The notes under the pieces: model-generated
What the model was told of the DNA's origin: nothing
The model's database searches: none
The model's input: the letters and a program-made list of their open reading frames with translations, nothing else
Part shown: positions 1-50,979 of the stretch, piece after piece
Layout of the letters: each line of letters begins with the position of its first letter
Position numbering within the stretch: position 1 is the first letter of the stretch
Made by a program: the position numbers and the translations under genes
NCBI GenBank assembly: GCA_041484445.1
Contig: JBGPHP010000001.1
Coordinates: 4,150-68,149 of the forward strand
DNA length: 64,000 bases
Direction: 5' to 3'
Source of the DNA: Gemmatimonadota bacterium
GTDB lineage: Bacteria > Gemmatimonadota > Gemmatimonadetes > Gemmatimonadales > GWC2-71-9

Positions 1-1
1 G

Positions 2-745: not shown

Positions 746-2877
746 GGCGCGTCGCTCTCGCCCAGCTGCCCCGTCGTGAGCTCCGTGACGATGCGGCGCG
801 CTCCGTACACGTTCGCGAGCGCCGCCTGGATCGCGCGCACGTCCACCATCACGTTACGGCCGCGCTCGGGGAGATAGATGTAGTCGCGCACCAGGGCGTC
901 GATGTTGCGGTCGAAGTTGAGCCCTACGATGCGCAGGTCCCGTGTCACGACCGGACTCCCCGAATTGCCGCCGTAGGTATCGGCGGTGGACACGAAGTCG
1001 AGCGGCGTGCCGAGGTCGAGTCCGGCGGGTGGCGTGCGCCAACGGTAGGGCAGATCCCATTCACTTCCCGGGCCGTTGGCGCGGAAGCGGTCGTACATGC
1101 CGTAGAACGTGGTGAACGGGGGCGCCAGCGTGCCGTTATAGGCGTAGCCCTGCACGACTCCGTCGGCGATACGCGGGGAGAACGTCCCGTCGGGCGGGAC
1201 GGTCTTCCCGAAAACCGCGAAGTGCGCCCGGCCCAAGTCGCTGGATAGCTCGCGCTCCTCGGTCGTGAGCGCGCCGAAGTCGCGGTTGAAAGCCCGGATC
1301 GCCGGGAGCAAGACAGCCAACAGCGTGAGCGCCGGGTCATCCGTCGAGAGCCCGGCGGAGAGCGCCAGATCGGCTTTGGCCGAGTCGGCGAGCGCCGAGG
1401 TGCTCAACAACCCCTCGGCGGCCGCCTCCGGGGTGGCCTGCCCCATGAGCGCGGCCTTGGCGAGCGGGTGCGCCGCTCCGTAGGCCCGTACGATGTCGCC
1501 CAGCTCCAGGGTCAGGAAACGCCTCTCGAGCTCGGGCGGTAGGTTGCCGACGGCGCGCAGGCGCCGACTGAACACCGCCGCCGAGTCTCCGCTGGCACCT
1601 CCGATCTGCGCCGCGTTGATAGCGCGCCGCGCCAGCGCCGATCCCGCAAAGCCGCTCGGGAAAAAGACGAACGCGCGATACGGGGCCGCGAAGGTCGCTT
1701 TGCGGCGCTGCAGGTCGGCCATGCGATCCAGCAGCCGGCCGTAACGGTCCTTCAGCTCGCGCCGCGCCGTCAGGCTTTCCGCCAGCTGCCGCTCGGCATC
1801 GCGCCGCCGCGCCATGATCCCGGGGTCGAGGAGGGCCCCGAGCCGACCCTGCGACGATTTCAGGCTGTTCGAGACGCCGAACATCCAGTTGCGCATGTCC
1901 AACGAGTCCCCGGTGACTCGATGGCCATCGTAATAGGCGCGTAGGGCGCTCAGACGCGTAGACAGAAAACTCACCTGCGCCGGCACGCTCACCGCACGTT
2001 CGTACTCGAGCTGCGACATCGGTTTCAGACGGGAGGTAGAGCCGGGGTTGCCGATCACGAACACCGCGTCGCCCGGTGCGACGCCCTGACTCCCCCAGGT
2101 GAACCAGTTCGGCGTCTCGTAGGGCTTGCCGTCGGCGCCGTAGATCCGGATCACCGAGAAATCCAGATCGTAGCGCGGGTAGGTGAAGTTGTCCGGGTCC
2201 CCGCCGAAGAACCCCATCTGCAGCTCCGGCGCCGCGACCAGCCGGACGTCGGTGAAGCGGCGGAACACGTACCCCGAGTAGCGCCCGCCGTTGTAGAGCG
2301 ACACCACCTGCACCCAGATCGAATCGCCGGGCGACGCGAACGCCGTCTTGAGCCGGGCGGCGGCGGTCGTGCTCGCCTCACGACGCACGCGGGCGCGGGC
2401 CGTGTCGAAGGTCGCCCGGTCGACCACAGGCTGGATCTGATCCGTAATGTCCTGCACGGCGAGCAGCTGGTCGGCGAAGAAGTCCGGCATGCGCCGCTCG
2501 TCGGCCAGCGAGTGCGCCACGAACCCCGAATCGAGCAGCGTTTCGCCGGGCTTCGTGACGGCCACGATCCCTTCGCGTGAGCAGTGATGGTTGGTGACCA
2601 CGAGTCCGTGGGGCGACACGAAGGAGGCCGAGCACCCGGGGATGCGCAACGCCGCGAGACGGGCGCGGGTGAACCACGCCGAGTCGGCCGCGAACCCGTA
2701 GGTGTCCGAGAAGTACCGGTCGGGGGGGTACTCGAACGTCCACATCTTGCCGTTGTCGAACCGGCCGGCCCGATTGGTATCGGCGGGTTGTTGGGCGGCG
2801 AGCGTGATCGGCACCGCGAGCAGCAGGAAATTGAGCGATTTCATCGGGACTCCACGTGGCATGGCGATTAGACGCAC
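742..2877 (-). CDS. S46 family dipeptidyl-peptidase (DPP7/DPP11-like), secreted
   Basis: 711-aa ORF with an N-terminal signal-like segment. S46 hallmarks are SFVSPHGLVVTNHHC (catalytic His region) and YGGNSGSPVV (catalytic Ser). Confidence 0.9.
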   Translation of the reverse strand: MRLIAMPRGVPMKSLNFLLLAVPITLAAQQPADTNRAGRFDNGKMWTFEYPPDRYFSDTYGFAADSAWFTRARLAALRIPGCSASFVSPHGLVVTNHHCSREGIVAVTKPGETLLDSGFVAHSLADERRMPDFFADQLLAVQDITDQIQPVVDRATFDTARARVRREASTTAAARLKTAFASPGDSIWVQVVSLYNGGRYSGYVFRRFTDVRLVAAPELQMGFFGGDPDNFTYPRYDLDFSVIRIYGADGKPYETPNWFTWGSQGVAPGDAVFVIGNPGSTSRLKPMSQLEYERAVSVPAQVSFLSTRLSALRAYYDGHRVTGDSLDMRNWMFGVSNSLKSSQGRLGALLDPGIMARRRDAERQLAESLTARRELKDRYGRLLDRMADLQRRKATFAAPYRAFVFFPSGFAGSALARRAINAAQIGGASGDSAAVFSRRLRAVGNLPPELERRFLTLELGDIVRAYGAAHPLAKAALMGQATPEAAAEGLLSTSALADSAKADLALSAGLSTDDPALTLLAVLLPAIRAFNRDFGALTTEERELSSDLGRAHFAVFGKTVPPDGTFSPRIADGVVQGYAYNGTLAPPFTTFYGMYDRFRANGPGSEWDLPYRWRTPPAGLDLGTPLDFVSTADTYGGNSGSPVVTRDLRIVGLNFDRNIDALVRDYIYLPERGRNVMVDVRAIQAALANVYGARRIVTELTTGQLGESDAP

Positions 2878-2899
2878 GGCGGGATGGGAGCGTTGCGAC

Positions 2900-3634
2900 T
2901 CACACGTCGCAGTCGTAGCCGTTCTCCAGCAGCTCGCGGGGCCCGGCGGGCCCGAGGATGAGGAGCGAAAAGGACGACAGGCAGGTCGAGCCGTCTCCGG
3001 GATCCCATTCGATGAGGGCGATCGTTCCGGTCGGATCCCGGTGGAACAGGGTCACGTGCAGCACTTTGGGAAAGGCGAAACTGGGTCGGGGGAATCGATG
3101 CTCCCTCCCGGCCACGGAGATCGCGAAGCTGTCCCGCCCCACGGCAGTGACCGCCGTCGCATCGAGCGCGGGGTCCCGCAGCGTCGCGCCGCTCACGTAG
3201 AACGCCGCCGCTTCAGGCGTGCGGCCCAGGGCGCACGCCACGCCTCCCGCGACCGGCTCGGCCGTGAGCGTCAACGTCGAATCGAAGAAGTAGGCGACGT
3301 TCCCGCGGAGCACCGTGGGAATCACCGGTGCGGCGCCGCCGCGATACAACACGACCCAGAACCGGTCTCCCACGCTCGCCGGGATGGACGCCTCGAAGGG
3401 AACGGACATCGAGTTGCCCAGCTCCGGCTCGAGCCCCGCGCGCAGCACGTCGGGGCTCGGATGCGCGAACCGCTCCTGCCCCAGTGACTGGACGGCGAGC
3501 GACCGCCAATCGACGAGCCCGGCGGGCAGATCGAGACACACCTCACCGCGCTGCGATGACGCGTTGCCCCAGTAGACGGGGCCCGTCGCGCCCGCCACGG
3601 CAACGGCGACGCATGCCAGCGTCGCGCATCTCAT
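2900..3634 (-). CDS. Secreted hypothetical protein
   Basis: 244-aa ORF with a signal-like N-terminus (MRCATLACVAVAVAGA) and normal amino-acid composition. No family recognised. Confidence 0.6.
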   Translation of the reverse strand: MRCATLACVAVAVAGATGPVYWGNASSQRGEVCLDLPAGLVDWRSLAVQSLGQERFAHPSPDVLRAGLEPELGNSMSVPFEASIPASVGDRFWVVLYRGGAAPVIPTVLRGNVAYFFDSTLTLTAEPVAGGVACALGRTPEAAAFYVSGATLRDPALDATAVTAVGRDSFAISVAGREHRFPRPSFAFPKVLHVTLFHRDPTGTIALIEWDPGDGSTCLSSFSLLILGPAGPRELLENGYDCDV

Positions 3635-3653
3635 GGGCAGCCGGAGCGCACGG

Positions 3654-4061
3654 TCAATCCTGCGTCTTCTCGGGTCCGGATGGGGGGCTAGGGTGGGGGC
3701 GCAGTGACCGCGCCACGAGCCCGATCCCCGCCGCGAGCAGCCCGAGGATGATCAGCGTGTCGAACAACGACGTCGCTTGGAAGTAGATGTGCAGATTGGC
3801 GAGGATCCCGGCCACGATGATCAGTGCCCCGGCGCCGGTCAGTCCCCACCCCGGAATGGAACGGCCGTTGAAGAACAGCACGCCGATCCCGACGAGCAGC
3901 GGCAGAAGCGACAGGCCGAACGCGTTGTAGCCCCAGAGCGTCCAGCCCCCGCTCGCCACCGTAACGCGCGTGAGGAGCAGATAGCCGCCGGCCACGATCA
4001 TCGCGGCGCCGCCCAGGAACGTACCCACGCCTCCCGGGGTGCCGCCCGCTCCTCGGATCAT
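3654..4061 (-). CDS. Small integral membrane protein (about 4 TM segments)
   Basis: Hydrophobic Gly/Leu-rich segments. I moved the start to the internal ATG (MIRGAGG...) because the upstream 38 codons are Arg/Pro-rich and crowd the divergent ABC gene. Confidence 0.6.
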   Translation of the reverse strand: MIRGAGGTPGGVGTFLGGAAMIVAGGYLLLTRVTVASGGWTLWGYNAFGLSLLPLLVGIGVLFFNGRSIPGWGLTGAGALIIVAGILANLHIYFQATSLFDTLIILGLLAAGIGLVARSLRPHPSPPSGPEKTQD

Positions 4062-22161: not shown

Positions 22162-23367
22162 TCAGGGAGTCCGGGACGACCAGGAGAAGCCCTGTGGACG
22201 GAGCTTCAAGGAGAAGGTGCCGCGCGACCACGGCAGCACGACGCTGTCGCCGCGCTGCTCGATGCGCTCCACCGGCACCCGCACCCCGCCCACCACGGCG
22301 CGCACCACGCGGCCGTGCTCCACGGCGATCGTGAAGGCCCCGGCGGGGTCGGAGGCGTGCACCACGAAATAGGACGGTACGAGGGCGCCGGGGCGCAGGG
22401 CATCGAGTGTCCCCGGCAACAACGCCTCTCCGGCGACGGCGAGCAGCGCCGCGGTGATTCCGCCGCCGGTGGCGAGCGCGGCCAAGCCCCGCCCCGCCGG
22501 GACGCGGGGGCCAGGCCGGGTCAGCCGCTCGAGTCGGGCCGCGAGGGATCCTCCGGTCGCCGCGAGCGCCGGTGCCGTCGCGTCCGCGCGCAATACCTCG
22601 AGTCGCGCCAGGGCGCGGGCATACGTGCGCGGATCCCCCACCGCCCGGACGGCGATTTCGTCGCAGCTCGCTTCCCGCTCGTGCCGCACAGCGCCCGATA
22701 CCCACCACCCGGCGGGATGGAAGCACAGCAACGACTCCACCAGCACCTGGATCAGGTTGGCCAGGCCATCGTGGCGTCGCACGTGTCCCAGCTCGTGCGC
22801 CAGGATCGCCTCGAGCTCACGGGCCTCGAGGGGGGCCAGCGTGGTGGGGATGAGGATGCGTGGGCGCCGCGTGCCGATCAGCGTCGGCACGGTCACGGCG
22901 CTCGAGAGGGCGATCGCCACGCGACGGTCGACGCCGACGCGGTGCGCGGCGCGAGCGAGGGCGTCGATCCATAGCTGCGGCGCGGGCTGCGTGCCCCCTC
23001 GACCGAGTCGAGCGGTCAGCCACCAGCCGCCGATCCAGCGCACCAGCATGATGGCCGCCAGCACGACCCACACCGCGGCGAGCCAGCGAGCCGCGGGCGT
23101 GAGCGCGTCGTACACGCCGGCCAGCAGCGCCGGGGCGGCCGCCGCTCCGCCGACCGCGAGCGACGGCCGATGCCGGCCGGCCCAGGCGAGGTAGCCTGCG
23201 TCGAGTACGGGGAGCAGCAGGAGCAGTAGCAGCGTCGCGTACGCCGCGGCGTAGCGCACCCGCGCGCCCAGCCCCCCGACCCCGAGTCCGAGCGCCAGTC
23301 CGCCGGCCAGGAGTACCGCCTGCCAGCTGAAGTGGACGAGCGCCCATCCCCACAGGGCGAGGCTCAC
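22162..23367 (-). CDS. BlaR1-like M56 family membrane sensor-peptidase
   Basis: 401 aa, multi-TM. M56 zinc motif ILAHELGHVRRHD. 4-nt overlap (ATGA-type) with the upstream BlaI-like gene. Confidence 0.88.
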   Translation of the reverse strand: MSLALWGWALVHFSWQAVLLAGGLALGLGVGGLGARVRYAAAYATLLLLLLLPVLDAGYLAWAGRHRPSLAVGGAAAAPALLAGVYDALTPAARWLAAVWVVLAAIMLVRWIGGWWLTARLGRGGTQPAPQLWIDALARAAHRVGVDRRVAIALSSAVTVPTLIGTRRPRILIPTTLAPLEARELEAILAHELGHVRRHDGLANLIQVLVESLLCFHPAGWWVSGAVRHEREASCDEIAVRAVGDPRTYARALARLEVLRADATAPALAATGGSLAARLERLTRPGPRVPAGRGLAALATGGGITAALLAVAGEALLPGTLDALRPGALVPSYFVVHASDPAGAFTIAVEHGRVVRAVVGGVRVPVERIEQRGDSVVLPWSRGTFSLKLRPQGFSWSSRTP

Positions 23368-23756
23368 GTGCGCTCCCGGTCCAGACGAGCGAGCAGCGCG
23401 CGCACTGCCGCCAGCTCGGCGCCGCGCGCCGGCCGGCTCGACAGCGCCCGCAGCGCGAGTCGCGCGGCCGAACCGCCGAACGCGCGCAGGGCGAGGTCGT
23501 CCACCAAGCGCCGTTGTGTGCGCTCCGAGGGCTCGGCGGCGGCGTAGATGTGGGTGCGCGACGACTTCTCGCGCGACACGAGCCCCTTGGCGTGCATGAT
23601 CTGGAGCAGTTTCAGCACGGTCGTGTACGCCGTGTCCTGTCCCCGTCCCAGGGCGACGCGGACGTCACGAACGGTGCTCGGGCCCCGGGTCCACAGGACC
23701 CCGAGGATCTCGAGCTCCGCCCCGGTGGGAAGCGGCGGCCCGCGTCGCGCTGTCAT
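23364..23756 (-). CDS. BlaI/MecI/CopY family transcriptional repressor
   Basis: 130 aa. Winged-helix N-terminus ELEILGVLWTRGPSTVRDV...YTTVLKLLQIMHAKGLV. Paired with the M56 gene. Confidence 0.88.
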   Translation of the reverse strand: MTARRGPPLPTGAELEILGVLWTRGPSTVRDVRVALGRGQDTAYTTVLKLLQIMHAKGLVSREKSSRTHIYAAAEPSERTQRRLVDDLALRAFGGSAARLALRALSSRPARGAELAAVRALLARLDRERT

Positions 23757-38995: not shown

Positions 38996-40894
38996 TCACC
39001 CTGCCCCAGCGGCCTCCACGAGGCGCTTCCGCTGACCCGGCAACACCAGGTCCTGCTTGACGACCTCCCGTACGATCCGGGCGACGAACCCGTAGCCCCG
39101 CCCGTCGGCGACGATCCACCGGTTCCATTCCAGCTCGTCGAGCCCTCCCGTCGCCTCTTCCATCGCGAGTCCGGTGGCACGTTGTAGTCGATCCGCCGTG
39201 ACGCTTCCCCCGAGCACGGCAAGGGCCTGCAGCAGCCGCTGAGCGGCAGGGCCGAGGCGCCGGAATCCGACCCGGATAGCGCCCACCACAGTCTCGGGCA
39301 GATCGCCGGGCAGGGTCTGGTCGAGCGTGCGGAAGGCCTCCGGCCAGGCACCACGGACCTTCGTGAGATCCAGGCCGGCGGCGACCGCGCTCAACAACTC
39401 CACCACGAGCAGCGGCAAGCCGGCCGAATCGGTACTCACCCGCCGGGTGAGGCGCTCCAACGCGGCCTCGTCGTAGTCCGGCATAGCCCAGTGAGCCAGC
39501 GCTTTGATCTCGGCGTTGCCGAGTGCGGCGAGCCGTACGACGCCGCCCGCCACGTCGCGGCCGAGGGTCGCGCGCAGCTCCTCCAGCTCGGGACGTGCCG
39601 CGGCACCATTCGAGGTACAGAGGACGTACAGCGGGCGGTCGGCCAGGTCCCGCAGCGCGGCGCCGACTGCGAGGACGGAATCACGATCCAGCAGCTCAAC
39701 GTCGTCCACCACCAGCGTCACCGGCTGCGCCGCGAGCGCCGCGCTCAGCACTTCGCTGAGCGCCCAGGCCGGCGGGCCTTCGGCGGAGACGCGGCGAGCG
39801 GCGGTGAAGCGGTCGGCCCACTCAGGGAGGCGCTCGATGAACCACGCCAGCGCGCCCGGTGCCGCACCGCCGACGCCACCCGCGTCGAGCAACCCGCCCC
39901 GGGCGAGACCGAGAATCCCACTCCAGGGCGTGGCGAGATCGCTCTCGACGGCCCGGATCACGGCCGTGGCCACTCCCTCGAGACGCATCCGAGACGTGAT
40001 CTCCTCGGCCAGGCGCGACTTTCCCACTCCGGCGTCGCCGACCAGGACCGTCGCACCCGCGCGCCCGGCGTCCCGTCCGAGTCGCCATGCGGCGATCAGG
40101 CGCTCCAGCTCCGCGCTCCTCCCGGTCAGTGGGGCGCGGCGTCGGTCGGACGGCTGCTCTCGTCCCCGGCTGCGCAGCACTCCCGGCGTCCGCCGAATCC
40201 GCTCGGCCAGGTCGCTGCACGATGCGCTGGGCCGGGTCCCCACCTCCGTCGCGAGCCGCGATGCGAGCTCGTCGTATTCCCGGAGCGCCCCGGCGTAGTC
40301 CCCGTCGAGCGCCAGCGCGCGCATCAGGCTCACCACCGCGGCTTCAGCGCAGGGGGCGATGGCCACGGCGCGGCGGGCGGCGCCGGCCGCCGCGCGCTGT
40401 GAGCCGCCGTCCACCTCCGCTTGAGCGAGTCGCAGCAGCGCGTCGATCGCGCGCCCGTTCCAGGATCGTCGCTCGCCGCTGAGCCACTCTTCGAATCCGG
40501 TCGCCCCCGGCACGGCGAGCCCCTCGGCGAACGTCCCGGTCACCAGCGCGGCGGCGTCACGCCAGTGTTCCCCGGCGACGAGGCGCGCGAACTCATCGGT
40601 GTCGAGCCGCACGACGTCGGGCGCGAGCCGCACCTGGTCCGCGACGGTATCGAGGGAGTGTTCGCCGACGGTCTGCCGCAACGTCGAAAGCGCGACGGTC
40701 AGCGAACGCCGTGACGCGTGGTCCGGCTTGTCGGGCCACAACAGGCCCACCAGGTGATCGCGCGTGCGGCTCCGCTTGGGCGAGCACGCCAGGTACACGA
40801 GCAGGGCGAGGTTCTTGCGCCACAACAGCTCAGCGGGGGGAGCGGCTCCGTTCACGCTGACGCGGATCGGGCCGAGCAGCTCGAGGTCGATCAT
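38996..40894 (-). CDS. AfsR/SARP-like regulator: winged-helix DNA-binding domain plus BTAD plus P-loop ATPase plus helical C-terminus
   Basis: ATG at 40894 (MIDLELLGPIRVSVNG...LVGLLWPD) gives an OmpR-type wHTH/SARP domain. The BTAD region ends ALREYDELASRLATEVGTRP. Walker A GDAGVGKSRL and Walker B LVVDDVELLD. ATGA overlap with the upstream kinase gene. Confidence 0.8.
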   Translation of the reverse strand: MIDLELLGPIRVSVNGAAPPAELLWRKNLALLVYLACSPKRSRTRDHLVGLLWPDKPDHASRRSLTVALSTLRQTVGEHSLDTVADQVRLAPDVVRLDTDEFARLVAGEHWRDAAALVTGTFAEGLAVPGATGFEEWLSGERRSWNGRAIDALLRLAQAEVDGGSQRAAAGAARRAVAIAPCAEAAVVSLMRALALDGDYAGALREYDELASRLATEVGTRPSASCSDLAERIRRTPGVLRSRGREQPSDRRRAPLTGRSAELERLIAAWRLGRDAGRAGATVLVGDAGVGKSRLAEEITSRMRLEGVATAVIRAVESDLATPWSGILGLARGGLLDAGGVGGAAPGALAWFIERLPEWADRFTAARRVSAEGPPAWALSEVLSAALAAQPVTLVVDDVELLDRDSVLAVGAALRDLADRPLYVLCTSNGAAARPELEELRATLGRDVAGGVVRLAALGNAEIKALAHWAMPDYDEAALERLTRRVSTDSAGLPLLVVELLSAVAAGLDLTKVRGAWPEAFRTLDQTLPGDLPETVVGAIRVGFRRLGPAAQRLLQALAVLGGSVTADRLQRATGLAMEEATGGLDELEWNRWIVADGRGYGFVARIVREVVKQDLVLPGQRKRLVEAAGAG

Positions 40895-43590
40895 CCCGCC
40901 GGCACCCTGCAGTCCCGGGCCGTGGCAGCTCGCGCGCTGTCCGCTCGGGCGGCATAGAGAGGCTCCGCGTTCGCCCACAGCCACGCCACCTCGCGCAGCA
41001 GGGCGCATTCCCCCGCCGCGGCGCTGAACCGGAGGCGACGCCACCGCCCCAGCGTGCCGAACGCCCAGTCCACCTCCATCGGCTGTGGCCCACCGGTCGG
41101 GAGCGAAATGCCGTCCGAGCTCTCGTACCAGATCAGCTCGAGATCCGCGTCGTGCGGCTCACCGACCCGTTCCCGCCACTCCGCCCGCAGCAAATGGAGC
41201 ACGGTGCGGAAACACGGGTCGCCGACCCACGCTGCGGGAAGCTCGATGAGACCATCACTCTGTACGATCGCATCCCCGTAGCGGCCCGCCAGAGCGGTGT
41301 CATAGGCGCGGAGCAGTCCGGTGAGCGATGCCGGCGCTCCCACTTCGAACGCCGGCCGCGCGGCCCCGAAACGTCGCGCGAGAAGCGCCGCCATCCAGCC
41401 GGCGCGAGCGCGCAGGCTCGCGGGCGCGCGACTCGCAAAGACCTGGAGCCGGTGTATCAGATCCGGCCACGCGGGGGCGCCCGAATCGGGATCGAACATC
41501 CGCAGCACCGCGTCGATCTCGAGTCCTAACAAGTCGAAGTCTGGGTCTCCGAATTCGGTGTGGATGCGCGCCAGTGTCCGGCGCGCCAGCTCCGGCCGCC
41601 CGGCGGTGAGGTGTCCGAACACCTGGGCGACCATCGCCGACGGACGATGATAGTCGCGCGCTTCGAGCTGCTCGCCGAGCCACACGGCACCGTTCGGCGC
41701 CGCAAAGTGATTGAGGTAGCGTGCGCCGGCATCCAGGGGCTCGTTGCTCCGGCCGGCGGCGGCGCCGACGAGCGATGCCGTGCGTCGGGCCGCGTCGGCG
41801 GGTGGCAAGAAGCGCCAGGCGAATGCGGCCTGGAGGAGATCTCGCATGCCGCTCGAGGCGGCTCCGGGGGGACCGAGGGCTCCCAGGGTGTCGAGCGCGG
41901 CCCGAGCCGACGACTCGTTGCCCTCAGCGATCCACAACCAGGCGAGGTGCTCCCACGCCGGCGCGAAATCGCGCCGGATTTCCGTTACTCTCGCGAATTC
42001 CACCGAGGCACTCAGACGCGGGCGACCGACGAGCGGGCCGCGATGCAGCAGCTCGTCACCCAACCGGAACGGGGCGAACAGAAAGCCGGGGGAGCGCCGG
42101 GCGAGGGCGTCGAGCGAATCGAGCCGAGGGTCGAGGGTCAACAGCTCAGCCCGGATCAAGGTTTGATAGTCTGGCGGGAAGCGATCGAGCTGTGCCCGGT
42201 ATTGCAGGGCGTCGCCGGTATCCGGCGGCAGTGCGAGGAAGCGGGCGACTTCGGCATGGCGCCAGGCGCACAGCCCGCACGAATCGTCGAGCGCTGCCGC
42301 TTCCGCGTAACCGAGGTATGCCGAGTCCAACCAAGCGCGCGCGAACGCCTTCTCGGCGCCGAGGAACGGGCGCAACGCGTCGGGGCGGCGCGGCAGGACG
42401 CGGACCGGGAGCCGCGGATCGAGCGGTCTCGCGCTGTACAGCCGCACCAGGATACTGTCGGCGAGGAGGTCAGCCGCCGGCCGCCACGCGGTGTCGGCGC
42501 TCGTGAGCGAAACCGGCGGCTGGCCCGGAAGCTGCACCCGGACGGCCAGCCCGGCCACCGAAACGCTCAGCGACCCCGACGCGACCGTCTTCGCCCGTCG
42601 CACCGGTGCGGGACCCAAGACCGTGAAATCGGGGAACCCCGTCAACCGTCCGGCGATGTGGAAGGCGATCGAGTCGCCCAGGCTCGCCGCGGCTCCGCTG
42701 ACGCGAAACCGCTCGATCCGCACGTCCACCTGTGGACTGCGGGGAAACGGGAACAGCCGCAGCGACACCGCGGCGACCACGACGACAGCGCCGGCATACC
42801 ACCACCCCGACGGGACAACCGACCGGCGCCACAGCGCGTGTTCAAACGCGCCCGCGCTGTGCCAGCGCTCGTCCGGGGACAGTTCGAGCGCGCGGCTCAG
42901 GGCGCGGCGGAGCTCCGGCGGGATGGCCGCAAGATCGGACTCAGTACCCTCCCAGTAACGTCCGGTCACCGCCTCGTACAGGACCATGCCGACGAGATAC
43001 AGGTCGGTCTGCGGATACTCGCGCCCGACGATCTGCTCCGGCGCCATGTATCGTCGCGTGCCCATCACCTGGCCGGGCTGGGTCTGGAGGGAGCCGGAGT
43101 CGGACTGCGATTTCGCGATACCGAAGTCCACCAGCACGCCCCGGCCGCGCACCAGGAAGATGTTGGAAGGCTTCACGTCCCGATGAATCACGCCGCGGCC
43201 GTGCGAGGCGTGCAGCGCGTCCAGCATGTCCCGGCCGAGGGAGAGCACTTCGGGAATCTCCAGCCGCCCGCGCGTCAGGCGCTTGGCCAGAGTCTCGCCG
43301 TCGAGGTACTCCATGATGTAGTAGATGAAGGGGTCGGTGTCCCGGCCCACGTCGTAGATGCGGACGATGTTGGGATGCTCGAACTCCGCCAGCGTGCGGG
43401 CTTCGTGGAGGAAGCGACGGGCCGCTTGTGCGCTGGCATTCTCGGGCAGGAGCGCTTTCACGGCCACCGGCCGGTCCAGAGCGGTGTCGTGTGCCAGGTA
43501 CACCGTCCCCATCCCGCCGCTCCCCAGCTCGCGTTGCAGCTGGAACCGGGGAGCGAGGAACTCTCGGAGCTGCTCGAAGAACGAGGCCAT
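40891..43590 (-). CDS. Membrane receptor Ser/Thr protein kinase with a ~600-aa extracytoplasmic region
   Basis: GSGGMGTVY, AVK, HRDVKPSNIF, DFG and APE motifs. A single TM (WWYAGAVVVVAAVSLRLFPF) follows the kinase domain. ATG at 43590 (MASFFEQL), with an alternative ATG at 43674 overlapping the upstream stop. Confidence 0.88.
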   Translation of the reverse strand: MASFFEQLREFLAPRFQLQRELGSGGMGTVYLAHDTALDRPVAVKALLPENASAQAARRFLHEARTLAEFEHPNIVRIYDVGRDTDPFIYYIMEYLDGETLAKRLTRGRLEIPEVLSLGRDMLDALHASHGRGVIHRDVKPSNIFLVRGRGVLVDFGIAKSQSDSGSLQTQPGQVMGTRRYMAPEQIVGREYPQTDLYLVGMVLYEAVTGRYWEGTESDLAAIPPELRRALSRALELSPDERWHSAGAFEHALWRRSVVPSGWWYAGAVVVVAAVSLRLFPFPRSPQVDVRIERFRVSGAAASLGDSIAFHIAGRLTGFPDFTVLGPAPVRRAKTVASGSLSVSVAGLAVRVQLPGQPPVSLTSADTAWRPAADLLADSILVRLYSARPLDPRLPVRVLPRRPDALRPFLGAEKAFARAWLDSAYLGYAEAAALDDSCGLCAWRHAEVARFLALPPDTGDALQYRAQLDRFPPDYQTLIRAELLTLDPRLDSLDALARRSPGFLFAPFRLGDELLHRGPLVGRPRLSASVEFARVTEIRRDFAPAWEHLAWLWIAEGNESSARAALDTLGALGPPGAASSGMRDLLQAAFAWRFLPPADAARRTASLVGAAAGRSNEPLDAGARYLNHFAAPNGAVWLGEQLEARDYHRPSAMVAQVFGHLTAGRPELARRTLARIHTEFGDPDFDLLGLEIDAVLRMFDPDSGAPAWPDLIHRLQVFASRAPASLRARAGWMAALLARRFGAARPAFEVGAPASLTGLLRAYDTALAGRYGDAIVQSDGLIELPAAWVGDPCFRTVLHLLRAEWRERVGEPHDADLELIWYESSDGISLPTGGPQPMEVDWAFGTLGRWRRLRFSAAAGECALLREVAWLWANAEPLYAARADSARAATARDCRVPAG

Positions 43591-43673
43591 GGCCGGCGGC
43601 CCCGCCAATGTAGCCTCGGGGGCCGCCGGCACCAGTTGCAGCCACGGACGCCACCGCGCCGCGACGCCTGCCA

Positions 43674-44852
43674 TTATTCGGCCACGTCAGCCCGTTCCCG
43701 CCACGGTCCAATGGTCGGCAGCAGGAACGTGGTGACGAGCCCGGCGTGATCCGAGGGCCAGAGGCCGCCGGCGGTCCGGTCGCCCGGCCGGTCACCCACG
43801 ACTTCGCGCCGCAGCGGGACGGCGAGTCGCGGCAGATTCCGTGTGAAGATGAAATCGATCCGCTGATTCAGGGTGGGCTGTGGATTGCCGAGATCCGCGC
43901 TCTCGCAGCACGTGGCGCCCGGATCGCGCTGGTGCGGTCGTAGCCAGCTGTCCGCAAAACCCGCCCCCGTGACCATGCCGTAGGACGGGGTCGCGGCGCC
44001 GGGCACCTGCCCCAGCACATCGGAATTGAAATCGCCCACGAGGATCGTCGGCCGGGTCTCCGACTGGAGCAGCCCCAGCAGCTCCTGCGCTTGCCCCACC
44101 TGTACGGGGACGGCCAGCTGCGCTTCGAGGTGCGTGGAGACGAACCGGAACGTACGACCGTGGATCGTCGCCTCTACGGACGCCCACCCTTCGAACACCC
44201 CCGTCTGCACGGGACCGAAGCTCACGGGAATGAACGCCTGGTATTTGCCGTGCTGCGCGTTGGCAAACTGCACGTCGGCGCGGGCGAGCACGGCGTCCCG
44301 ATCGGTCAGGCGGACGTCGTCGAAGGTCGGGTTTCCCGTTCCGTCGATGCCGGCGAACGCCGGGAGCTCCACGTCCGTGGTGGAGTCCGCGGCGGCGACG
44401 ACGTAGTGGAGGCCGCGCGCCGCGAGCGAATCCACCAGCAGCGCCAGAAAGTCGTACACGACGGCCGTCGCCGGCGTCGCTCCACCGAACACCGCATCCC
44501 CGGGATGCTGCACCCGGTACAGGGCCGCTTCCTGCAGGCCGACGAGGTGCGGCCGGCGGCGCGCGATCAGCGCCGCCAGGGCGCCGGCGCGCGCCGGGAA
44601 GTTCGTATGCTGCGCCAGGGCCCACACCCCGGCGGCGACGAACGGAACTTGATCGAGCGGCGTGGCCAGCAGCGGCGTCGGATCGGTACCGTAGTAGACG
44701 TTGTACGTCATGACCGTGAGGCCGGGGCCATCTCGGTCGTCGTGGTCATCGTTTCCCTGATTGGACCGGCTCGCGCTGATTCCCGCGATATCGCGGTCGG
44801 CGCAAGCCGCCGCCAGCACGGCGGCGGCGAGAAGCGAGCAGAGTGTGCGCAT
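43674..44852 (-). CDS. Endonuclease/exonuclease/phosphatase (EEP) family lipoprotein
   Basis: Lipobox LAAAC. LTVMTYNVYYG N-terminal motif and C-terminal SDHAGLV motif. Confidence 0.85.
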   Translation of the reverse strand: MRTLCSLLAAAVLAAACADRDIAGISASRSNQGNDDHDDRDGPGLTVMTYNVYYGTDPTPLLATPLDQVPFVAAGVWALAQHTNFPARAGALAALIARRRPHLVGLQEAALYRVQHPGDAVFGGATPATAVVYDFLALLVDSLAARGLHYVVAAADSTTDVELPAFAGIDGTGNPTFDDVRLTDRDAVLARADVQFANAQHGKYQAFIPVSFGPVQTGVFEGWASVEATIHGRTFRFVSTHLEAQLAVPVQVGQAQELLGLLQSETRPTILVGDFNSDVLGQVPGAATPSYGMVTGAGFADSWLRPHQRDPGATCCESADLGNPQPTLNQRIDFIFTRNLPRLAVPLRREVVGDRPGDRTAGGLWPSDHAGLVTTFLLPTIGPWRERADVAE

Positions 44853-44926: not shown

Positions 44927-44962
44927 TTGCTAAGTTTTTAGCATGATGCTAGAATTTTAGCA
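44927..44962 (+). promoter_or_regulatory. Sigma70-like promoter (TTGCTA-17-TAGAAT) overlapped by two tandem TGCTA(A/G)-N4-TTAGCA palindromes
   Basis: The -35 is at 44927-44932 and the -10 at 44950-44955. Palindromes are TGCTAAGTTTTTAGCA (44928-44943) and TGCTAGAATTTTAGCA (44947-44962). This is an AT-rich island 20 nt upstream of the BlaI-like ATG, with GGAG in between. Confidence 0.65.
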
Positions 44963-44982: not shown

Positions 44983-45372
44983 ATGGCACCCCCGGCCCGC
45001 TCCCAGCTCTCACGGCGCGAGCGCCAGATCATGGACGTGATCTACCGGCTCGGCCGCGCGACGGCCGCCGACGTCCACGACGCCCTCCCCGACCGTCCCA
45101 GCTATTCCACGGTCCGCGCGTTGTTGCGCGTGCTCGAGGGCAAAGGCCATCTGCGGCACATCGAAGACGGCCCACGTTACGTCTACTCCCCGACCGTGCC
45201 GCGGGAACGCGCGCGGGAATCGGCGCTGCGCCAGGTCGTCAGCACTTTCTTCGGCGGCTCCACCGAAGCCGCGGTCGCGGCCCTGCTCGACTTGTCGAAC
45301 GCGCGACTCTCCGACTCCGAGCTGAATCGACTCGCCGGGCTCATCGCCCAGGCCAAGAAAGAAGGACGGTGA
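44983..45372 (+). CDS. BlaI/MecI/CopY family transcriptional repressor (second copy)
   Basis: 129 aa with RRERQIMDVIYRLGRATAADV...YSTVRALLRVLEGKGHL. Followed 3 nt later by an M56 gene. Confidence 0.9.
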   Translation: MAPPARSQLSRRERQIMDVIYRLGRATAADVHDALPDRPSYSTVRALLRVLEGKGHLRHIEDGPRYVYSPTVPRERARESALRQVVSTFFGGSTEAAVAALLDLSNARLSDSELNRLAGLIAQAKKEGR

Positions 45373-45375
45373 CCC

Positions 45376-47853
45376 ATGCGCGATTTCGTCCTCGACTCGC
45401 TGGCCAAAGCAACGCTGCTGCTCGGCGCCGCGGGCCTGGTCACCCTGGCGTGGCGTGCGGCCGCGCCGCGGCACTTCGTCTGGACGCTCGGACTCACCGG
45501 CGCCCTGGTCCTCCCGGCGGCCAGGCTGTTCGGGCCGGCGTGGCGCGTGCCGGTGTTCCCGGCACCCGCGCTGATGGCGGAGCCGGCGCCGCCGGCGCCC
45601 GGCGTGAATGATCCCGCGACGACGACCGTCGCCGGACCGCTGCCTGCTGTCACCAGCGCCACGGCCTCGATCGTGGCGGCGGCACCCGCAGCCGCACGCC
45701 CGAGGCTCGGCCCGTGGCTGATCGCCGTCTGGCTCGTCGGGATGGCGCTCGTGCTCGGAGCGTACATGGCCGGCGCCTGGCGCGTGGCGCGGATCGCGCG
45801 CCGCGCCCACCCCATCCAGTCGCGGGACTGGCTCGAGCTCCTGGCCTCCATCGCCGCCCAACTGGGGCTGCGCACGCCGGTGCAGCTGCTCGCCGCAGCG
45901 GGTCCCGCGATGCCGATGACCTGGGGCATCAGGCGGCCGGTCGTCCTGCTCCCGGCCGACGCGGAGCAGTGGTCCGCCGAGCGCCGCCGGGACGTCCTAC
46001 TCCACGAGCTGGCCCATGTCGAGCGGCGCGATTGCCTGACGCAGCTCCTCGCCGTCTGCGCCTGCGCCGCGTACTGGTTCCATCCGCTCGTGTGGGTTGC
46101 CGCGGCGCGGCTGCGCATCGAACGCGAGCGCGCCTGCGACGACCGGGTCCTCGCCGGCGGCGCCAAGCCGTCCGACTATGCCGGGCATCTGCTCGACATC
46201 GCGCGCACGTTGCGGGCGGCGCCGGTCACCGGACTCGCCAGTGTCGCCATGGCCCGGCCGTCGCAGCTCGGCAGCCGCCTCCTCGACGTGCTCGATCCCG
46301 CGCGGCGTCGCGACGCGTTGAACCGCCGGCTGGTGGTCCCCAGCGCTCTCGCCGCAGCCCTCGTCGTGCTGCCGCTCGCCGTCCTGCGTCCCACGCGCCT
46401 GTCGGCGCATCAGGCGGCCCGGACGACGCTGCCGTGGACCTCGAGTGACGATCCGCAGGAAACCCTGCAGGCGGTGCATCGCGCGATGGCGCAGGAGCCT
46501 GCGCTCCACCATCCAACCCCCGATTCGAGCGGGTGCCAGCCGCGTTCGTCCCGCAACAGCTCCGGCAGCACCAGCAGCTCCAGCACCTCCAGCGAACACA
46601 GCACGGGGCACCGCACACAGCTGCTGTACAAGACCGGCAGCTGCTCGCTGGAGCTCGTGGCGGAGGGGGGATTCCACTTCACGACCGACTACACCGACAT
46701 CTCCCAGATCGATGCCGGCGGCTCGGTCGTGCTGGAGCGACGCGACGGCAACCAGGAGCGCCGCGTGGAGATGCGACCCGGTTCGGGCGGTGTGGCGCAC
46801 CGCTGGTTCGTGGACGACACCGAGCGTCCCTACGATGCCGAGGCCCGCGCCTGGCTCACCGCGACGCTCACGGAGCTGCTGCGCCGGACGGGATATGCCG
46901 GCGAAGCGCGCAGCCGCTGGATCCTGCAGACCCGCGGGCAGGACGCCCTGTTCCAGGAGATCACCCAGATCTCGGGGGATTACGCGAAGCGCCTCTACTA
47001 TCAGGAGCTCGTGGCCGATGGCCGGTTGGATCCAGCCGGCGTCGCGAGAGTCGTGACACAGGCGGGGAGCGAGATCTCCAGCGACTATGACCTGGCGGAG
47101 ATCCTGGTGCTCGTGGCGGCCCGCTACCCATTGAGCGAGCCCTCCCGCACCGCCTTCGTGACCGCGGCCGATCACATCCAGTCCGATTATGACCGCCACC
47201 GGGTGCTCGCGGTGGTGCTGGCCGGGAAGAGCCTGCCCGATGAGCTCGCGACCGCCGTCCTGGGGTCAGCCGGTCATATCGAGTCGGACTACGACCTCGC
47301 CGAAGTGCTCATCGTGCTCATCCAGAAACACCCGATCACGGCGGCGATGAGCCCCGCGTTTTTCCAGGCCGTAAACGGCATCGAGTCCGATTACGACCGC
47401 CGTCGCGTCCTGGCGACGCTCCTCGCGCAACGCGAGACGCCGCCGGCGCTGGTCGCCGCCGCCCTCACGTCGGCGGGACAGATCTCGTCGGATTACGATC
47501 GGGCGGAGCTGCTGGTGCAGGTGGCCGAGGGCCCCGGCGTGGATGAAACCTCGCGGAGCCCTTTCTTCGCGGCGGCCGACGGCATCGGCTCGGACTACGA
47601 CCACGCCCGGGTGCTGACGGCCTTGAGCGAGCACGCGGGCCTGGCCGAGTCCGCGGCGGCGGCCGTGATCGCCTCCGCTCGTCGCATCGGCTCGGCCTAC
47701 GATTGCGCCAACGTGCTGGTCGCGGTCGCGCAGCACCTGCGCCTCACGAGCGCGTTGCGACAGGCCTACATCGAGGCGGCGAACCAGATCGGCTCCGAAT
47801 CGGACCGTAACCGCGCTCTCGCCGCCCTGGCAGGCAGCTCGCAGCTCGACTGA
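45376..47853 (+). CDS. BlaR1-like M56 sensor-peptidase with a long C-terminal extension (Ser-rich linker, ~110-aa domain, 34-aa repeat array)
   Basis: 825 aa. M56 motif LLHELAHVERRD. Linker SSRNSSGSTSSSSTSSEHS. C-terminal SDYD repeats. Confidence 0.88.
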   Translation: MRDFVLDSLAKATLLLGAAGLVTLAWRAAAPRHFVWTLGLTGALVLPAARLFGPAWRVPVFPAPALMAEPAPPAPGVNDPATTTVAGPLPAVTSATASIVAAAPAAARPRLGPWLIAVWLVGMALVLGAYMAGAWRVARIARRAHPIQSRDWLELLASIAAQLGLRTPVQLLAAAGPAMPMTWGIRRPVVLLPADAEQWSAERRRDVLLHELAHVERRDCLTQLLAVCACAAYWFHPLVWVAAARLRIERERACDDRVLAGGAKPSDYAGHLLDIARTLRAAPVTGLASVAMARPSQLGSRLLDVLDPARRRDALNRRLVVPSALAAALVVLPLAVLRPTRLSAHQAARTTLPWTSSDDPQETLQAVHRAMAQEPALHHPTPDSSGCQPRSSRNSSGSTSSSSTSSEHSTGHRTQLLYKTGSCSLELVAEGGFHFTTDYTDISQIDAGGSVVLERRDGNQERRVEMRPGSGGVAHRWFVDDTERPYDAEARAWLTATLTELLRRTGYAGEARSRWILQTRGQDALFQEITQISGDYAKRLYYQELVADGRLDPAGVARVVTQAGSEISSDYDLAEILVLVAARYPLSEPSRTAFVTAADHIQSDYDRHRVLAVVLAGKSLPDELATAVLGSAGHIESDYDLAEVLIVLIQKHPITAAMSPAFFQAVNGIESDYDRRRVLATLLAQRETPPALVAAALTSAGQISSDYDRAELLVQVAEGPGVDETSRSPFFAAADGIGSDYDHARVLTALSEHAGLAESAAAAVIASARRIGSAYDCANVLVAVAQHLRLTSALRQAYIEAANQIGSESDRNRALAALAGSSQLD
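46969..47850 (+). repeat. Protein-level tandem array: one 35-aa, seven exact 34-aa and one truncated repeat (I.SDYD...VL...)
   Basis: Repeats start ISGDYAK, ISSDYDLAEIL, IQSDYDRHRVL, IESDYDLAEVL, IESDYDRRRVL, ISSDYDRAELL, IGSDYDHARVL, IGSAYDCANVL and IGSESDRNRAL. The summed lengths (294 aa) run exactly to the stop codon. Confidence 0.85.
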
Positions 47854-47854
47854 T

Positions 47855-49267
47855 TCAGACGATCGGGCCGAACTGGCCCTTGCTGGGCTCCGCTCAGCAA
47901 AACCAGGGCTCGGTGAGCCGCGCCGATCGACGCCGCGCACGGGGCGTCGCGCCGACGCGGGGCTCGGGCCCGGGTCGGTCGGCAAGTGCTGCCGCGGCGG
48001 CGCGGATCCGCTCGAGTGTCACGCCAGCGTCCGCGGCGCGCTCGGCGGCCTCTTCCACCAGCCGGCTCACCACCCCATACAGGCGGTCCATGCGCGGATC
48101 GGGGTGCGTCCAGCGATACGTCAGCGCGGTCTCGTCCAGCTCCCCCAGGTGCTCGCGCATCCACGGCTTCGCGAGCAGCGCGGAACCCGGCGGCACGAGC
48201 AACCGGATGGCGTATTGGATCGGATCGACCTGATCGATCAACCCCTCGGCGACGGTCACGTCCAGCATGTCCAGGTAATCGTCGAACGTCGTCCACGGGG
48301 TGAACGCGACGAACGAAGGCCGCAGCGCGATGGCGGCATCCCGCGTGATGCCGAGCGCAGTGAACACGTCGGCGCGCGTGTGTCCTTTCTCCAGCCGGGC
48401 CAGGACGACGTCGCTGAACGATTCGACCGCCGACACGATGAACAGGCATCCGAGGGCGGCGAGCTCGGGGAGCATGGTACGATGCCGCACCAGATGCTCG
48501 ATCTTGGCCGTAATGTCGAACGTCACCTCGGGGAAATCCGCGTGCAGCGCCCGGGTCACGCGCAACGCATGCCCGGGCCCGTTCAGAAAATCGGGGTCAC
48601 CGAAGGTGATGTGACGCGCGCCCGACTCCACCTGTTGCCGGATGTCCGCCAGCACCACCGGAGCGGGCACCGCGAAGAAACGCCCGTCATAGACCGGCGG
48701 GATGGGACAATGGAGGCAATGATGCAGGCACCCCCGGGTCGACTCGACGTATCCCGCGGAGACCAGCTGTCCGTCCCGCTCGAGCCGGGCATACCCCGGT
48801 GAGCCGGGGGCCCTCGTCCGGCGCGGGAGCGGGAAGTCGAGACGCGCGAGCAGCGGGCGGGACGCGCCGGCAGTCGCCTGTCGTTCTCCCCGACTCACCT
48901 GCTCGACGAGCGAGACCAGCGCCTGCTCGAGCTCGCCACCGAGCACCGCGTGCCCCCGACCGGCCAGCAGGTAGGCGGCGTTCAGTGTGGCGTAGAGTCC
49001 GTAGAAACAAATGAACGCATCGGGATTGAGGACGTGGATACGCTCCGCCGCTCGCACGCCGAGGCGGAGCGCCGTATGCATCGGGACCGAGATGCCGACG
49101 AAGCGTGCCCGGCGCACCGCCGCTTCATCGAGGGGCTCGACGGCGAGATCGATCTGCGCCGGTCGAAACCCGGCGCGCTCGAGGAAAGCGGCGGGCCAGG
49201 CTGTGCCGAGCGGCCGGTGCCCCAGCTCGTAGCACGAAACGAGAAGAACCTCGCCCGGAGCCCGCAT
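47855..49267 (-). CDS. B12-binding-domain radical SAM protein, probable selenoprotein (C-U-A-E-P tail; in-frame TGA at 47894-47896)
   Basis: CX3CX2C motif GCLHHCLHC. The track ORF ends ...LTEPWFC at a TGA. Read-through gives U-A-E-P-SKGQFGPIV and a second TGA at 47855-47857. Confidence 0.7.
47865..47879 (-). promoter_or_regulatory. Candidate bacterial SECIS hairpin (GGGCC-AGUUC-GGCCC)
   Basis: The stem starts 14 nt after the UGA, placing the apical loop 19 nt downstream. The loop contains GU. The stem is only 5 bp, so this is tentative. Confidence 0.4.
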
Positions 49268-49290: not shown

Positions 49291-50979
49291 CTATTGCCGG
49301 CAGGGCGCGGTCGGATCGGGTTTCGGGTGATCCACCACGATGCGATGATCGAGGTCCGCGACGTGGAGCGCGATATCGGCCACGAAGCTCGCGACGCGGG
49401 CCATATGGTCGTAGTCGATGTACTCCGGCTCGTCGGTCACCTGGTGGTAGTCCGAGTGCAGGCCCGTCGTGAAGAACGTGATGGGGATGCCGTAGCGCGC
49501 GTAGGAATAGTGATCGCTGCGGCAGTAGATGTTGGACGGATGGCCGTCGGCGTCGATCGCGTAGTCGAGCGTCAGACCGTGGTGGCCCTGCGTGTTCACC
49601 GTCTCGATCAGGTTACCCAGCTCGGTCGACAGGCGGCGCGACCCGACGAGCTGCAGGTAGGTCGGCGTGCCGCGAATCGCCGTGCCCTCCTTGGTACGTC
49701 CCGTTTCGTCGGCCGCGTCGCCGCGACCGATCATGTCCATGTTGAGCTGCGCCACGATCGAGTCGCGTGACACGGTCGGGTGATCGGTGAAGAACCGGGA
49801 GCCGAGCAGCCCCTTCTCCTCGCCGGTGTGCCAGACGAACAGGATCGACCGTTTCGGCTTGCGCGGCATCGAGACGATGTGCTCGGCCACTTCGAGGGCG
49901 GACACGGTCCCCGATCCGTCGTCGTCGGCGCCGTTGGAGATCGAGTCGACCCGCGTGCTGCCCGGGTGCGCGGCGCGGAATGCCGCGAGCAGCGAGTCCA
50001 CCGTCACCTGTTGCGCCGGCGTCGCCTGCTTGCCGCCGTCGTCGGCCCCCTCGGGACGCACGACGTGGTTCCAGATGCGGATCGAGTCGTGGTCCACGGG
50101 CCGGGCCAGGCCGATGTGATCGTTGTGCGCGCCGATCGCCACGAATTCGCCCTTCAGCTTCGGGTCGCTGCCCGGGACGATGGCGACGACGTTCCGCGCC
50201 GGATCGGCGATCGCGGTGACGGTGTAGCGCACGTCGACCGCCGCGCCGGCGCCGGTCGCGCCCAGCGTGAGCGAGTCGAACCGCGTGCTGAACATCTTCG
50301 CCGCCGCGGCCTGCGAAATGAGGATGATCGTCGGCTGCGATTGGCCCGGCGGGTTGTCGTCCAGGAACATCTGCGGCCGCCGCAGGAATCCCGTGAACTG
50401 GGGCGGCAGGCTGTCGAGGCCGAGCAGCGCCACGCCCCAGGCCCCTTCGATCGTCGGCGCGCGACGGAGCGCCCGCAGCGAATTGAGCCCGCCGGTCGTG
50501 AGGACGACGAGCTTGCCGGCCACCTGTGCCGCCGGCAGCTGGTGGGCTGAATCTCCCATCATCCCGCCGAAGACGATCGGCACTGATGCAGTGCTCGAGG
50601 GCTGGCGGGTGAGCGGCAGGTATTCGGTGAACAGGGCGAGCGGGGCGCCCGCCACCGTGAAGGTCGATGTCGTGTCGAAACTGCGCGTCTTGAGCGGGAT
50701 CGTCTGAAAGTAGGTGCCGCTGTCGCCGGCGGGTTGCAGCCCCATGCGCCGCAGCTCGGCGGCGATGTAGCTCGTCGCCTTGACGTTGCCGGCCGTTCCC
50801 GCCTCACGACCCATCATCGAGTCGTCCGCGTAGACATAGAGCCGGCTCATCAAGTCCGCCGCCGTAATCGCCGAGGTCGTGGGCTGGGCCGCGCGCTTCA
50901 CTGGCAGCGAGCTCTGCGCCCGCACCGGCAGGGCCGCGAGTAACCCGATGAGAGGAAGGAACAGGACGCGGTTACGCAT
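49291..50979 (-). CDS. M28 family aminopeptidase with a PA domain, secreted
   Basis: Signal peptide MRNRVLFLPLIGLLAALPVRAQ. Zinc-ligand motifs GAHNDHIG, DDDGSGTV and GEEKGLLGS. Confidence 0.9.
   Translation of the reverse strand: MRNRVLFLPLIGLLAALPVRAQSSLPVKRAAQPTTSAITAADLMSRLYVYADDSMMGREAGTAGNVKATSYIAAELRRMGLQPAGDSGTYFQTIPLKTRSFDTTSTFTVAGAPLALFTEYLPLTRQPSSTASVPIVFGGMMGDSAHQLPAAQVAGKLVVLTTGGLNSLRALRRAPTIEGAWGVALLGLDSLPPQFTGFLRRPQMFLDDNPPGQSQPTIILISQAAAAKMFSTRFDSLTLGATGAGAAVDVRYTVTAIADPARNVVAIVPGSDPKLKGEFVAIGAHNDHIGLARPVDHDSIRIWNHVVRPEGADDGGKQATPAQQVTVDSLLAAFRAAHPGSTRVDSISNGADDDGSGTVSALEVAEHIVSMPRKPKRSILFVWHTGEEKGLLGSRFFTDHPTVSRDSIVAQLNMDMIGRGDAADETGRTKEGTAIRGTPTYLQLVGSRRLSTELGNLIETVNTQGHHGLTLDYAIDADGHPSNIYCRSDHYSYARYGIPITFFTTGLHSDYHQVTDEPEYIDYDHMARVASFVADIALHVADLDHRIVVDHPKPDPTAPCRQ

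Follow-up and report, generated by a model that had tools for sequence, protein, structure and literature searches.

A stretch of 64,000 nucleotides (nt) from a Gemmatimonadota bacterium (assembly GCA_041484445.1, contig JBGPHP010000001.1, positions 4,150 to 68,149 of the forward strand; hereafter the window) carries adjacent genes for a BlaI-type repressor and for an M56 (BlaR1-like) membrane protein of 825 amino acids (aa), whose C-terminus is an array of SDY[DE] repeats. The C-terminal module of the M56 protein, about 420 aa long and comprising a Ser-rich tether, a beta domain, two long helices and an alpha-solenoid, would replace the penicillin-binding sensor of classical BlaR1. With a probability of about 65%, this module is the extracytoplasmic, non-beta-lactam input part of an autoregulated BlaR/BlaI protease-repressor switch.

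In the proposed mechanism, the module would perceive a cue other than a beta-lactam outside the inner membrane. For an alpha-solenoid, such a cue would most likely be proteinaceous (protein or peptide) or a polymer of the cell envelope. The resulting change could be relayed via the fourth transmembrane segment (TM4) to the cytoplasmic M56 zinc protease, which would inactivate the BlaI-type repressor. The repressor would then leave both palindromes, located at the -35 and -10 hexamers of the promoter, and the blaI-blaR operon would be derepressed, probably along with distant target genes. Signalling and repressor proteolysis are proposed by analogy with BlaR1 (PMC9834060) and with a survey of BlaIR systems (PMC13492132). 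The role of the array as a sensor is suggested by its architecture, and the nature of the ligand is likewise a proposal. The elements of the system are as follows (window coordinates).

44927..44955, + strand: sigma-70-like promoter of the blaI-blaR operon (TTGCTA, 17 nt, TAGAAT, with TG before the -10 hexamer), from a promoter scan
44928..44943, no strand: predicted operator palindrome 1, TGCTAAGTTTTTAGCA, overlapping the -35 hexamer
44947..44962, no strand: predicted operator palindrome 2, TGCTAGAATTTTAGCA, overlapping the -10 hexamer
44983..45372, + strand: gene of the BlaI/MecI-type winged-helix repressor, 129 aa (PF03965, Penicillinase_R, scoring 99 bits where the cutoff is 22.6, E 2e-28)
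45376..47853, + strand: open reading frame (ORF) of the M56 protein, 825 aa
45376..46386, + strand: M56 transducer/protease part, residues 1–337 (PF05569)
46525..46608, + strand: Ser-rich low-complexity linker after TM4, residues 384–411, from the translation
46585..46830, + strand: beta domain, about residues 404–485, nine antiparallel strands (AlphaFold2)
46837..46965, + strand: two long connecting helices, residues 488–530 (AlphaFold2 and the conserved RPxDxEARAWL...R..G...R..IL...G motifs)
46969..47850, + strand: SDY[DE] alpha-solenoid array, residues 532–825, nine two-helix units or about 4.5 A/B super-repeats of 68 aa

Anatomy of the Repeat Array

The array occupies the final 294 aa of the protein. 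A first unit of 35 aa (residues 532–566) is followed by seven units of 34 aa and by a last one, cut short at 21 aa (805–825). Full units start at residues 567, 601, 635, 669, 703, 737 and 771, i.e., with a spacing of exactly 34 aa, so that the motif scan reproduced the nine tandem units (35 aa, seven of 34 aa, one partial) that a preliminary description of this DNA had placed at nt 46969..47850. The I-x-S-D-Y-D motif that opens each unit is degenerate in three of them (ISGDYA in the first, IGSAYD, and IGSESD in the last). The periodicity is far above chance: mean BLOSUM62 self-similarity is 1.00 at a lag of 34, 1.48 at 68, 0.73 at 102 and 1.32 at 136, while the top value across all lags in 1000 shuffles of the array is -0.07.

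Since lags 68 and 136 beat lags 34 and 102, the true period is 68 aa. Typed by position 9 (Glu or Asp in A units, Arg or Lys in B units), the array reads A-B-A-B-A-B-x-B from residue 567 onwards. The second helix of the "x" unit (IGSAYDCANVL...AYIEAANQ) is of the A type, and the first unit of the protein (ISGDYAKRL) is B-like, which gives (B)-A-B-A-B-A-B-A'-B for the array as a whole. The preliminary description had seen in this alternation a hint of a 68-aa super-repeat and had added that the later units mix the two signatures. The alternation is real and the hint was an understatement; the supposed mixing is wrong, as the alternation spans the whole array, and the super-repeat is the true building block both of this array and of the family as a whole.

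The 68-aa A+B pair is the unit of structure and evolution. Among neighbouring units in about 190 homologs, AB was counted 345 times and BA 279 times, compared to 5 AA and 95 BB; 75% of the 1275 units in these proteins are exactly 34 aa long. Homologous arrays contain from about 4 to 13 units, gained or lost as whole 68-aa pairs. The close homologs P0006, P0018 and P0019 differ from the window protein by deletions of exactly 68 residues.

The consensus of the two unit types was derived from 214 A+B pairs, which were chosen on positions 9 and 43, so that both of these columns are biased. The A unit reads [IML]-D-S-D-Y-E-[KL]-A-E-L-L-I..[LVM]-A......D..L..A-[YF]-[VL].A-[VA].., and the B unit reads [IL]-D-S-D-Y-E-x-R-R-V-L..[LV].....L-[DS]...[LV]..[VL]-L..A.., with SDY[DE]-x-A-E-L-L and SDY[DE]-x-R-R-V-L as the respective core signatures. 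In these pairs, the Ser and Asp of the motif are conserved at 96–99% and the Tyr at 84–86%. Y-[DE] is replaced by G-D, H-D, E-E or Y-Y in divergent branches (P0048, P0053, P0113, P0050).

The units of the window protein share 24–56% identity at the protein level and 43–62% at the DNA level. Tandem Repeats Finder detected no 102- or 204-nt DNA repeat, the sole repeat found being a 9-nt one in the linker. Due to this low identity and the lack of a DNA repeat of unit or pair length, the array is not a recent expansion; its units are old.

Predicted Membrane Topology and Structure

The N-terminal part of the protein matches PF05569 in Pfam (residues 92–302, E 1e-33, 117.3 bits against a cutoff of 31) and contains HELAH (HEXXH) at residues 210–214 and ERACD (EXXXD) at 251–255. 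Hydropathy analysis gives four hydrophobic segments, predicted to be transmembrane (4–22, 34–52, 115–133 and 319–337), with stretches rich in Arg next to TM3 and TM4 on the side of the protease. On the basis of the four-segment pattern, the HEXXH motif and the positively charged cytoplasmic flanks, the protease is predicted to be cytoplasmic and the C-terminal module to lie outside, which is the topology of BlaR1. The outside location is supported by stand-alone homologs of the module, which are exported or membrane-anchored. Within the sequence that codes for the Ser-rich linker lies a 9-nt tandem repeat, CAGCTCCAG (46557-46593, 4.1 copies), which could be a site of length variation.

AlphaFold2 was applied to residues 430–825 with an alignment of 45 sequences. 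The model (mean predicted local distance difference test, pLDDT, 96.3; predicted TM-score, pTM, 0.89) contains beta strands, followed by two long helices and by a pair of helices in each 34-aa unit. Another model, which covers residues 400–570 (pLDDT 94.9), resolves nine strands at about 404–485 and helices at 488–505 and 509–530.

According to the DSSP string of the model, the first helix of every unit begins at the Asp that follows the motif Ser. This Ser would be the helix N-cap and the fourth motif residue, [DE], would be at N3, these being the positions of an S-x-x-E capping box. Together with the conserved Ala/Leu residues of the core, the Tyr (N2) would lie on the hydrophobic face of the helix. 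Glu9 of A units and Arg9 of B units occupy equivalent sites of adjacent units, which suggests a ladder of inter-unit salt bridges. At least in part, the SDY[DE] motif would be a structural helix cap, and it need not contact a ligand. In 47 non-redundant orthologs whose arrays are equally long, conservation peaks at the motif and at the core positions of both helices and drops to its minimum in the loop that joins helix A to helix B.

Comparison with Known Families

In Pfam, the window protein matches only Peptidase_M56; nothing significant covers residues 340–825, where the best match is TerB (E 0.1). PF00905 is absent, and so is any other Pfam transpeptidase or penicillin-binding protein domain. 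NCBIfam matches are limited to the M56 part and fall far short of the equivalog cutoffs, with 103 bits for blaR1_generic (cutoff 400, residues 114–335) and 21.5 bits for MecR1 (cutoff 1200).

The 34-aa period is shared with several known repeats. The array could read nucleic acids, in the manner of TALE repeats or otherwise, or belong to the TPR/HEAT group and have its usual function, and a single-sequence phmmer search of PDB sequences indeed returned weak TALE chains (E 0.003–0.3). However, this signal was lost with two family profiles, one built from the module and one from the 68-aa pair: no TALE chain was found, and nothing in the PDB sequences fell below E 0.1. TALE kinship was rejected on this ground; most likely, the initial signal arose from the period of 34 aa that both repeats have. 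No TPR, Sel1 or HEAT model of Pfam matches the window protein at E<=1 or any of 45 homologs at E<=0.1, and no TAL model matches any of these 45. In a Foldseek comparison of the whole module with the PDB, the best matches were generic solenoids of the HEAT/ARM kind and repeat proteins made by design, with E >= 5e-4 and TM-score <= 0.44. Considering also the predicted extracytoplasmic location, such an identity of the array is effectively refuted.

For the beta domain, Foldseek found nothing significant in the PDB (best p32/gC1qR, E 0.015, TM-score 0.25). DUF4476 (PF14771) was tried as a family since P0113, a stand-alone protein of 578 aa with S-S-D-E-E in place of S-D-Y-[DE], reaches 28.8 bits against a cutoff of 22.5, with no single stretch passing on its own. 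It was rejected because its matches are sporadic. The window protein and 44 of the 45 homologs show no match at E<=0.01, one homolog matches at E 0.03, and P0113 is the sole tested member above the threshold. P0113 may hint at a remote link of the SDY[DE] family with the uncharacterised DUF4476. Nothing relevant was found in the literature on the motif or on DUF4476. The module belongs to no named family and has no solved relative.

These results agree with most of the preliminary description. It had recognised the C-terminal part of a BlaR1-like M56 protein, which is substantiated by PF05569, HELAH, ERACD, the four hydrophobic segments and the adjacent BlaI-type gene, and had noted a Ser-rich linker (now residues 384–411) and a further domain ahead of the array; the latter resolves into the beta domain and the two helices. 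Its regular alpha-solenoid is what AlphaFold2 predicts. It had called the consensus unlike TPR and had not recognised the repeat, and no explanatory match came from Pfam, NCBIfam, PDB-sequence profiles or Foldseek. A signal other than a beta-lactam, which it had deduced from the lack of a penicillin-binding sensor, is in line with the absence of PF00905 and with a blaR1 score far below the cutoff.

Alternatively, the array could be a cation- or metal-binding module, in which a ridge of Ser-Asp-x-Asp/Glu would act in the manner of TerB or of the acidic patch of PhoQ and make the protein a sensor of cations or cationic peptides. The array is acidic (38 Asp+Glu compared to 23 Lys+Arg across 294 aa) and has two near-invariant acidic residues per unit. 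TerB (PF05099, gathering score 24.4 bits) gives sub-threshold matches to the window protein (13–16 bits; E 0.014 for the module alone and 0.1 for the whole protein) and to P0113 (20.8 bits, E 5e-4), and the top NCBIfam match of the repressor is CopY/TcrY, far below the cutoff. However, TerB is touched by only one of the 45 members at E<=0.1 and every match is below the gathering score, for which reason it was rejected as the family of the module. The capping-box positions (Ser as N-cap, Asp/Glu at N3) give a structural explanation of the acidic residues, Cys, His and Met are not conserved, and the translated repressor lacks the Cys motif of CopY. A cation-binding function is therefore considered very unlikely.

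Repressor, Promoter and Operators

The blaI gene stops 3 nt short of the M56 gene. In related genomes, a blaI homolog lies directly upstream of the module-encoding gene and on the same strand in 68 of 80 loci, and most exceptions are cut by contig ends. These loci are the best 80 of 240 found in species-representative genomes with one repeat pattern, built from an alignment of nine sequences; the locus counts below refer to the same 80.

The promoter matches the sigma-70 consensus at 9 of 12 positions, compared to a mean of 0.1 sites in dinucleotide-preserving shuffles of the region. Together with the two palindromes, it sits in an AT-rich island (44927..44962) of a window with 69% GC. The 16-bp palindrome pattern, TGCTAR-N4-YTAGCA, matches the 64-kb window only at these two places (0.03 matches expected). 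It occurs, often doubled, just upstream of blaI in 51 of the 80 loci, and 73 of its 74 matches in 817 kb fall in this position. Strong comparative evidence for a putative autoregulated repressor-operator unit is thus provided by palindromes that overlap the -35 and -10 hexamers and are kept just upstream of blaI in 51 loci.

Distribution and Architectures

When cluster representatives (50% identity), 1.84 billion in number, were searched exhaustively with a profile, 5171 of them matched at E<=1e-3, including 2276 at E<=1e-30. In species-representative genomes, relatives were confirmed at 240 places that match one repeat pattern. The repeat is thus not confined to one genome. Such a confinement, as a recent expansion without conservation, was one of two findings that the preliminary description had named as refuting; the other, a clean match to a named repeat family of known function, does not apply either. 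A word-indexed search with the profile of the 68-aa pair gave only 7 short fragments. The 80 loci belong mostly to metagenome-assembled genomes of Gemmatimonadota, with some from Acidobacteriota (Luteitalea, Vicinamibacterales, Thermoanaerobaculia) and one from Latescibacterota; further matches are labelled Pyrinomonadaceae, Blastocatellia and Hyphococcus.

M56 and the module are encoded in one ORF in 73 of the 80 loci. Architectures were counted among the 150 top-ranking representatives, in the 143 proteins that were new. An M56-like N-terminus is present in 117 of them, all but two of these with HEXXH, and most of the others are fragments or have a signal peptide or one transmembrane anchor. 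The beta domain is conserved in all homologs. Two M56 proteins, P0054 and P0055 (687 and 690 aa), contain only the region that precedes the array (the beta domain and the conserved helix motif). Because they carry the beta domain without the solenoid, this domain appears to be an independently mobile unit.

Such proteins bear on another possible function of the solenoid. It could serve as a rigid spacer or as a scaffold, or be a platform for oligomerisation, used for holding the protein to the envelope or for recruiting a partner protein, while the beta domain senses. M56 proteins with a beta domain and no solenoid would suit this function, as would P0056, in which a second beta-domain-like stretch was noticed by eye in the sequence upstream of its module. 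The variation of arrays by whole 68-aa pairs and the focus of conservation on structural positions point in the same direction. On the other hand, the beta domain and the solenoid occur together in nearly all of thousands of homologs, stand-alone forms included, and pure spacers rarely hold 96–99% identity at Ser and Asp and 84–86% at Tyr across phyla. A solenoid that does not itself bind the ligand is possible, although unlikely.

Stand-alone copies of the module occur in several contexts, none of which proved informative. In L084 and L085 (6001..7518), membrane-anchored copies of about 500 aa are located in a conserved neighbourhood of accB, X, a pilT-like ATPase gene and accC. Copies of about 380 aa in Acidobacteriota (L081, 5001..6134) adjoin genes for YceI and for a MacB/FtsX permease. 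No M56 or BlaI gene is present among the called genes of these three loci. An ars operon is the context of another copy. A supposed stand-alone copy in L056 (Latescibacterota) was left undecided because of the masked stretch of N beside it.

In one clade (L017, L019, L020, L021, L024, L025, L027, L032 and L045, at about 1..3700), a second blaI-M56 pair, in divergent orientation, is located just upstream of the pair of the SDY[DE] type. The second M56 protein is complete in L020 (1017 aa) and has no match to the module.

Proposed Sensor Function of the Module

Several points weigh against a sensory function of the module in an M56-BlaI switch. The capping-box and Glu-Arg readings come from the DSSP string and from sequence logic. 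Among the 47 orthologs of equal array length, no conserved patch is specific to a particular unit, which suits a scaffold as well as a sensor. The stand-alone copies are found in unrelated housekeeping contexts, and the module therefore also works without M56. Finally, clustering of ORFs over the 80 loci revealed no conserved neighbour besides blaI, so that an output regulon is not indicated; the remaining groups of neighbours, which on visual inspection may be DinB-like and Ada-like, are present in no more than 26 loci and probably reflect local synteny in close relatives.

A more specific function of the solenoid can be imagined, which is regarded as doubtful. The A/B solenoid would be a modular reader of a new class, whose strictly periodic ridge of Ser-Asp-Tyr-Asp/Glu (one motif per 34 aa) engages a periodic extracytoplasmic ligand, e.g., a glycan strand or other polymer of the envelope, or else a lattice of cations. 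If this were true, the length of the array would set the length of ligand that is read, and the state of an envelope polymer would be coupled directly to transcription via M56 and BlaI in Gemmatimonadota and Acidobacteriota.

Genomic Neighbourhood in the Window

The genes that flank the cassette are listed below; none of these five is conserved beside it in other genomes.

38996..41044, - strand: BTAD/AAA transcriptional regulator
40891..43674, - strand: Ser/Thr protein kinase, 927 aa
43674..44852, - strand: endonuclease/exonuclease/phosphatase-family protein, divergent from blaI
47894..49267, - strand: B12-binding radical SAM protein
49291..50979, - strand: M28 peptidase

The window contains a second pair of genes, for a BlaI-like protein (23364..23756, - strand) and for an M56 protein of 401 aa (22162..23367, - strand), the latter with a short C-terminal tail and without the SDY[DE] module. 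Thus, the genome carries several paralogous BlaR/BlaI switches with different inputs.

Comparison with Known Systems

The window system shares with BlaR1/MecR1-BlaI/MecI of Staphylococcus aureus and Bacillus licheniformis an M56 domain with HEXXH and EXXXD, four transmembrane segments followed by an extracellular C-terminal domain, as predicted for the window protein, an adjacent Penicillinase_R gene in the operon and palindromic operators that overlap the promoter. It differs from BlaR1/MecR1 in that the penicillin-binding sensor is lacking and a beta domain with an alpha-solenoid of 68-aa period is present instead. The operators differ as well: the half-site is TGCTA(R) in the window, whereas it is TACA/TGTA in BlaI/MecI operators.

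The solenoid resembles TPR, TALE, HEAT, ARM and Sel1 repeats (33–35 aa) in having helix-hairpin units of about 34 aa stacked one upon another. Unlike these, it strictly alternates two unit types and bears its motif in the inter-unit loop and at the helix N-cap. A two-flavour (A/B) solenoid of 68 aa is of interest for the evolution and design of repeat proteins.

BlaR/BlaI systems are now viewed as a general route of signalling from the outside to the genome. Only about 6% of roughly 15,000 M56 proteins bear a beta-lactam-binding domain, and the commonest class has an unannotated C-terminus (PMC13492132); the lack of annotation for most M56 C-termini and sensor domains has already been recognised in that survey. 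The window protein fits its largest class, in which M56 is followed by a C-terminus without an identifiable domain. The same protease-repressor logic, with a signal that is not known, is found in the atypical BlaIR systems CenIR of C. difficile (PMC13492132) and PvmSR of P. aeruginosa (bioRxiv 10.64898/2026.08.03.742534). However, the C-terminal region of CenR is reportedly largely unstructured (PMC13492132) and PvmS has no sensor domain at all (bioRxiv 10.64898/2026.08.03.742534), whereas the window module is large, confidently folded and widely conserved.

In this way, one large sensor class is defined by clear domain boundaries, a repeat consensus, a high-confidence model and an operator which could be used for finding the regulon. 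Modules of this class are found mainly in Gemmatimonadota, a major phylum of soils that has received little study. The type of system is already known; what is new compared to the systems described above is a large, well-folded module that spans phyla, its obligate A/B solenoid of 68 aa and a conserved operator.

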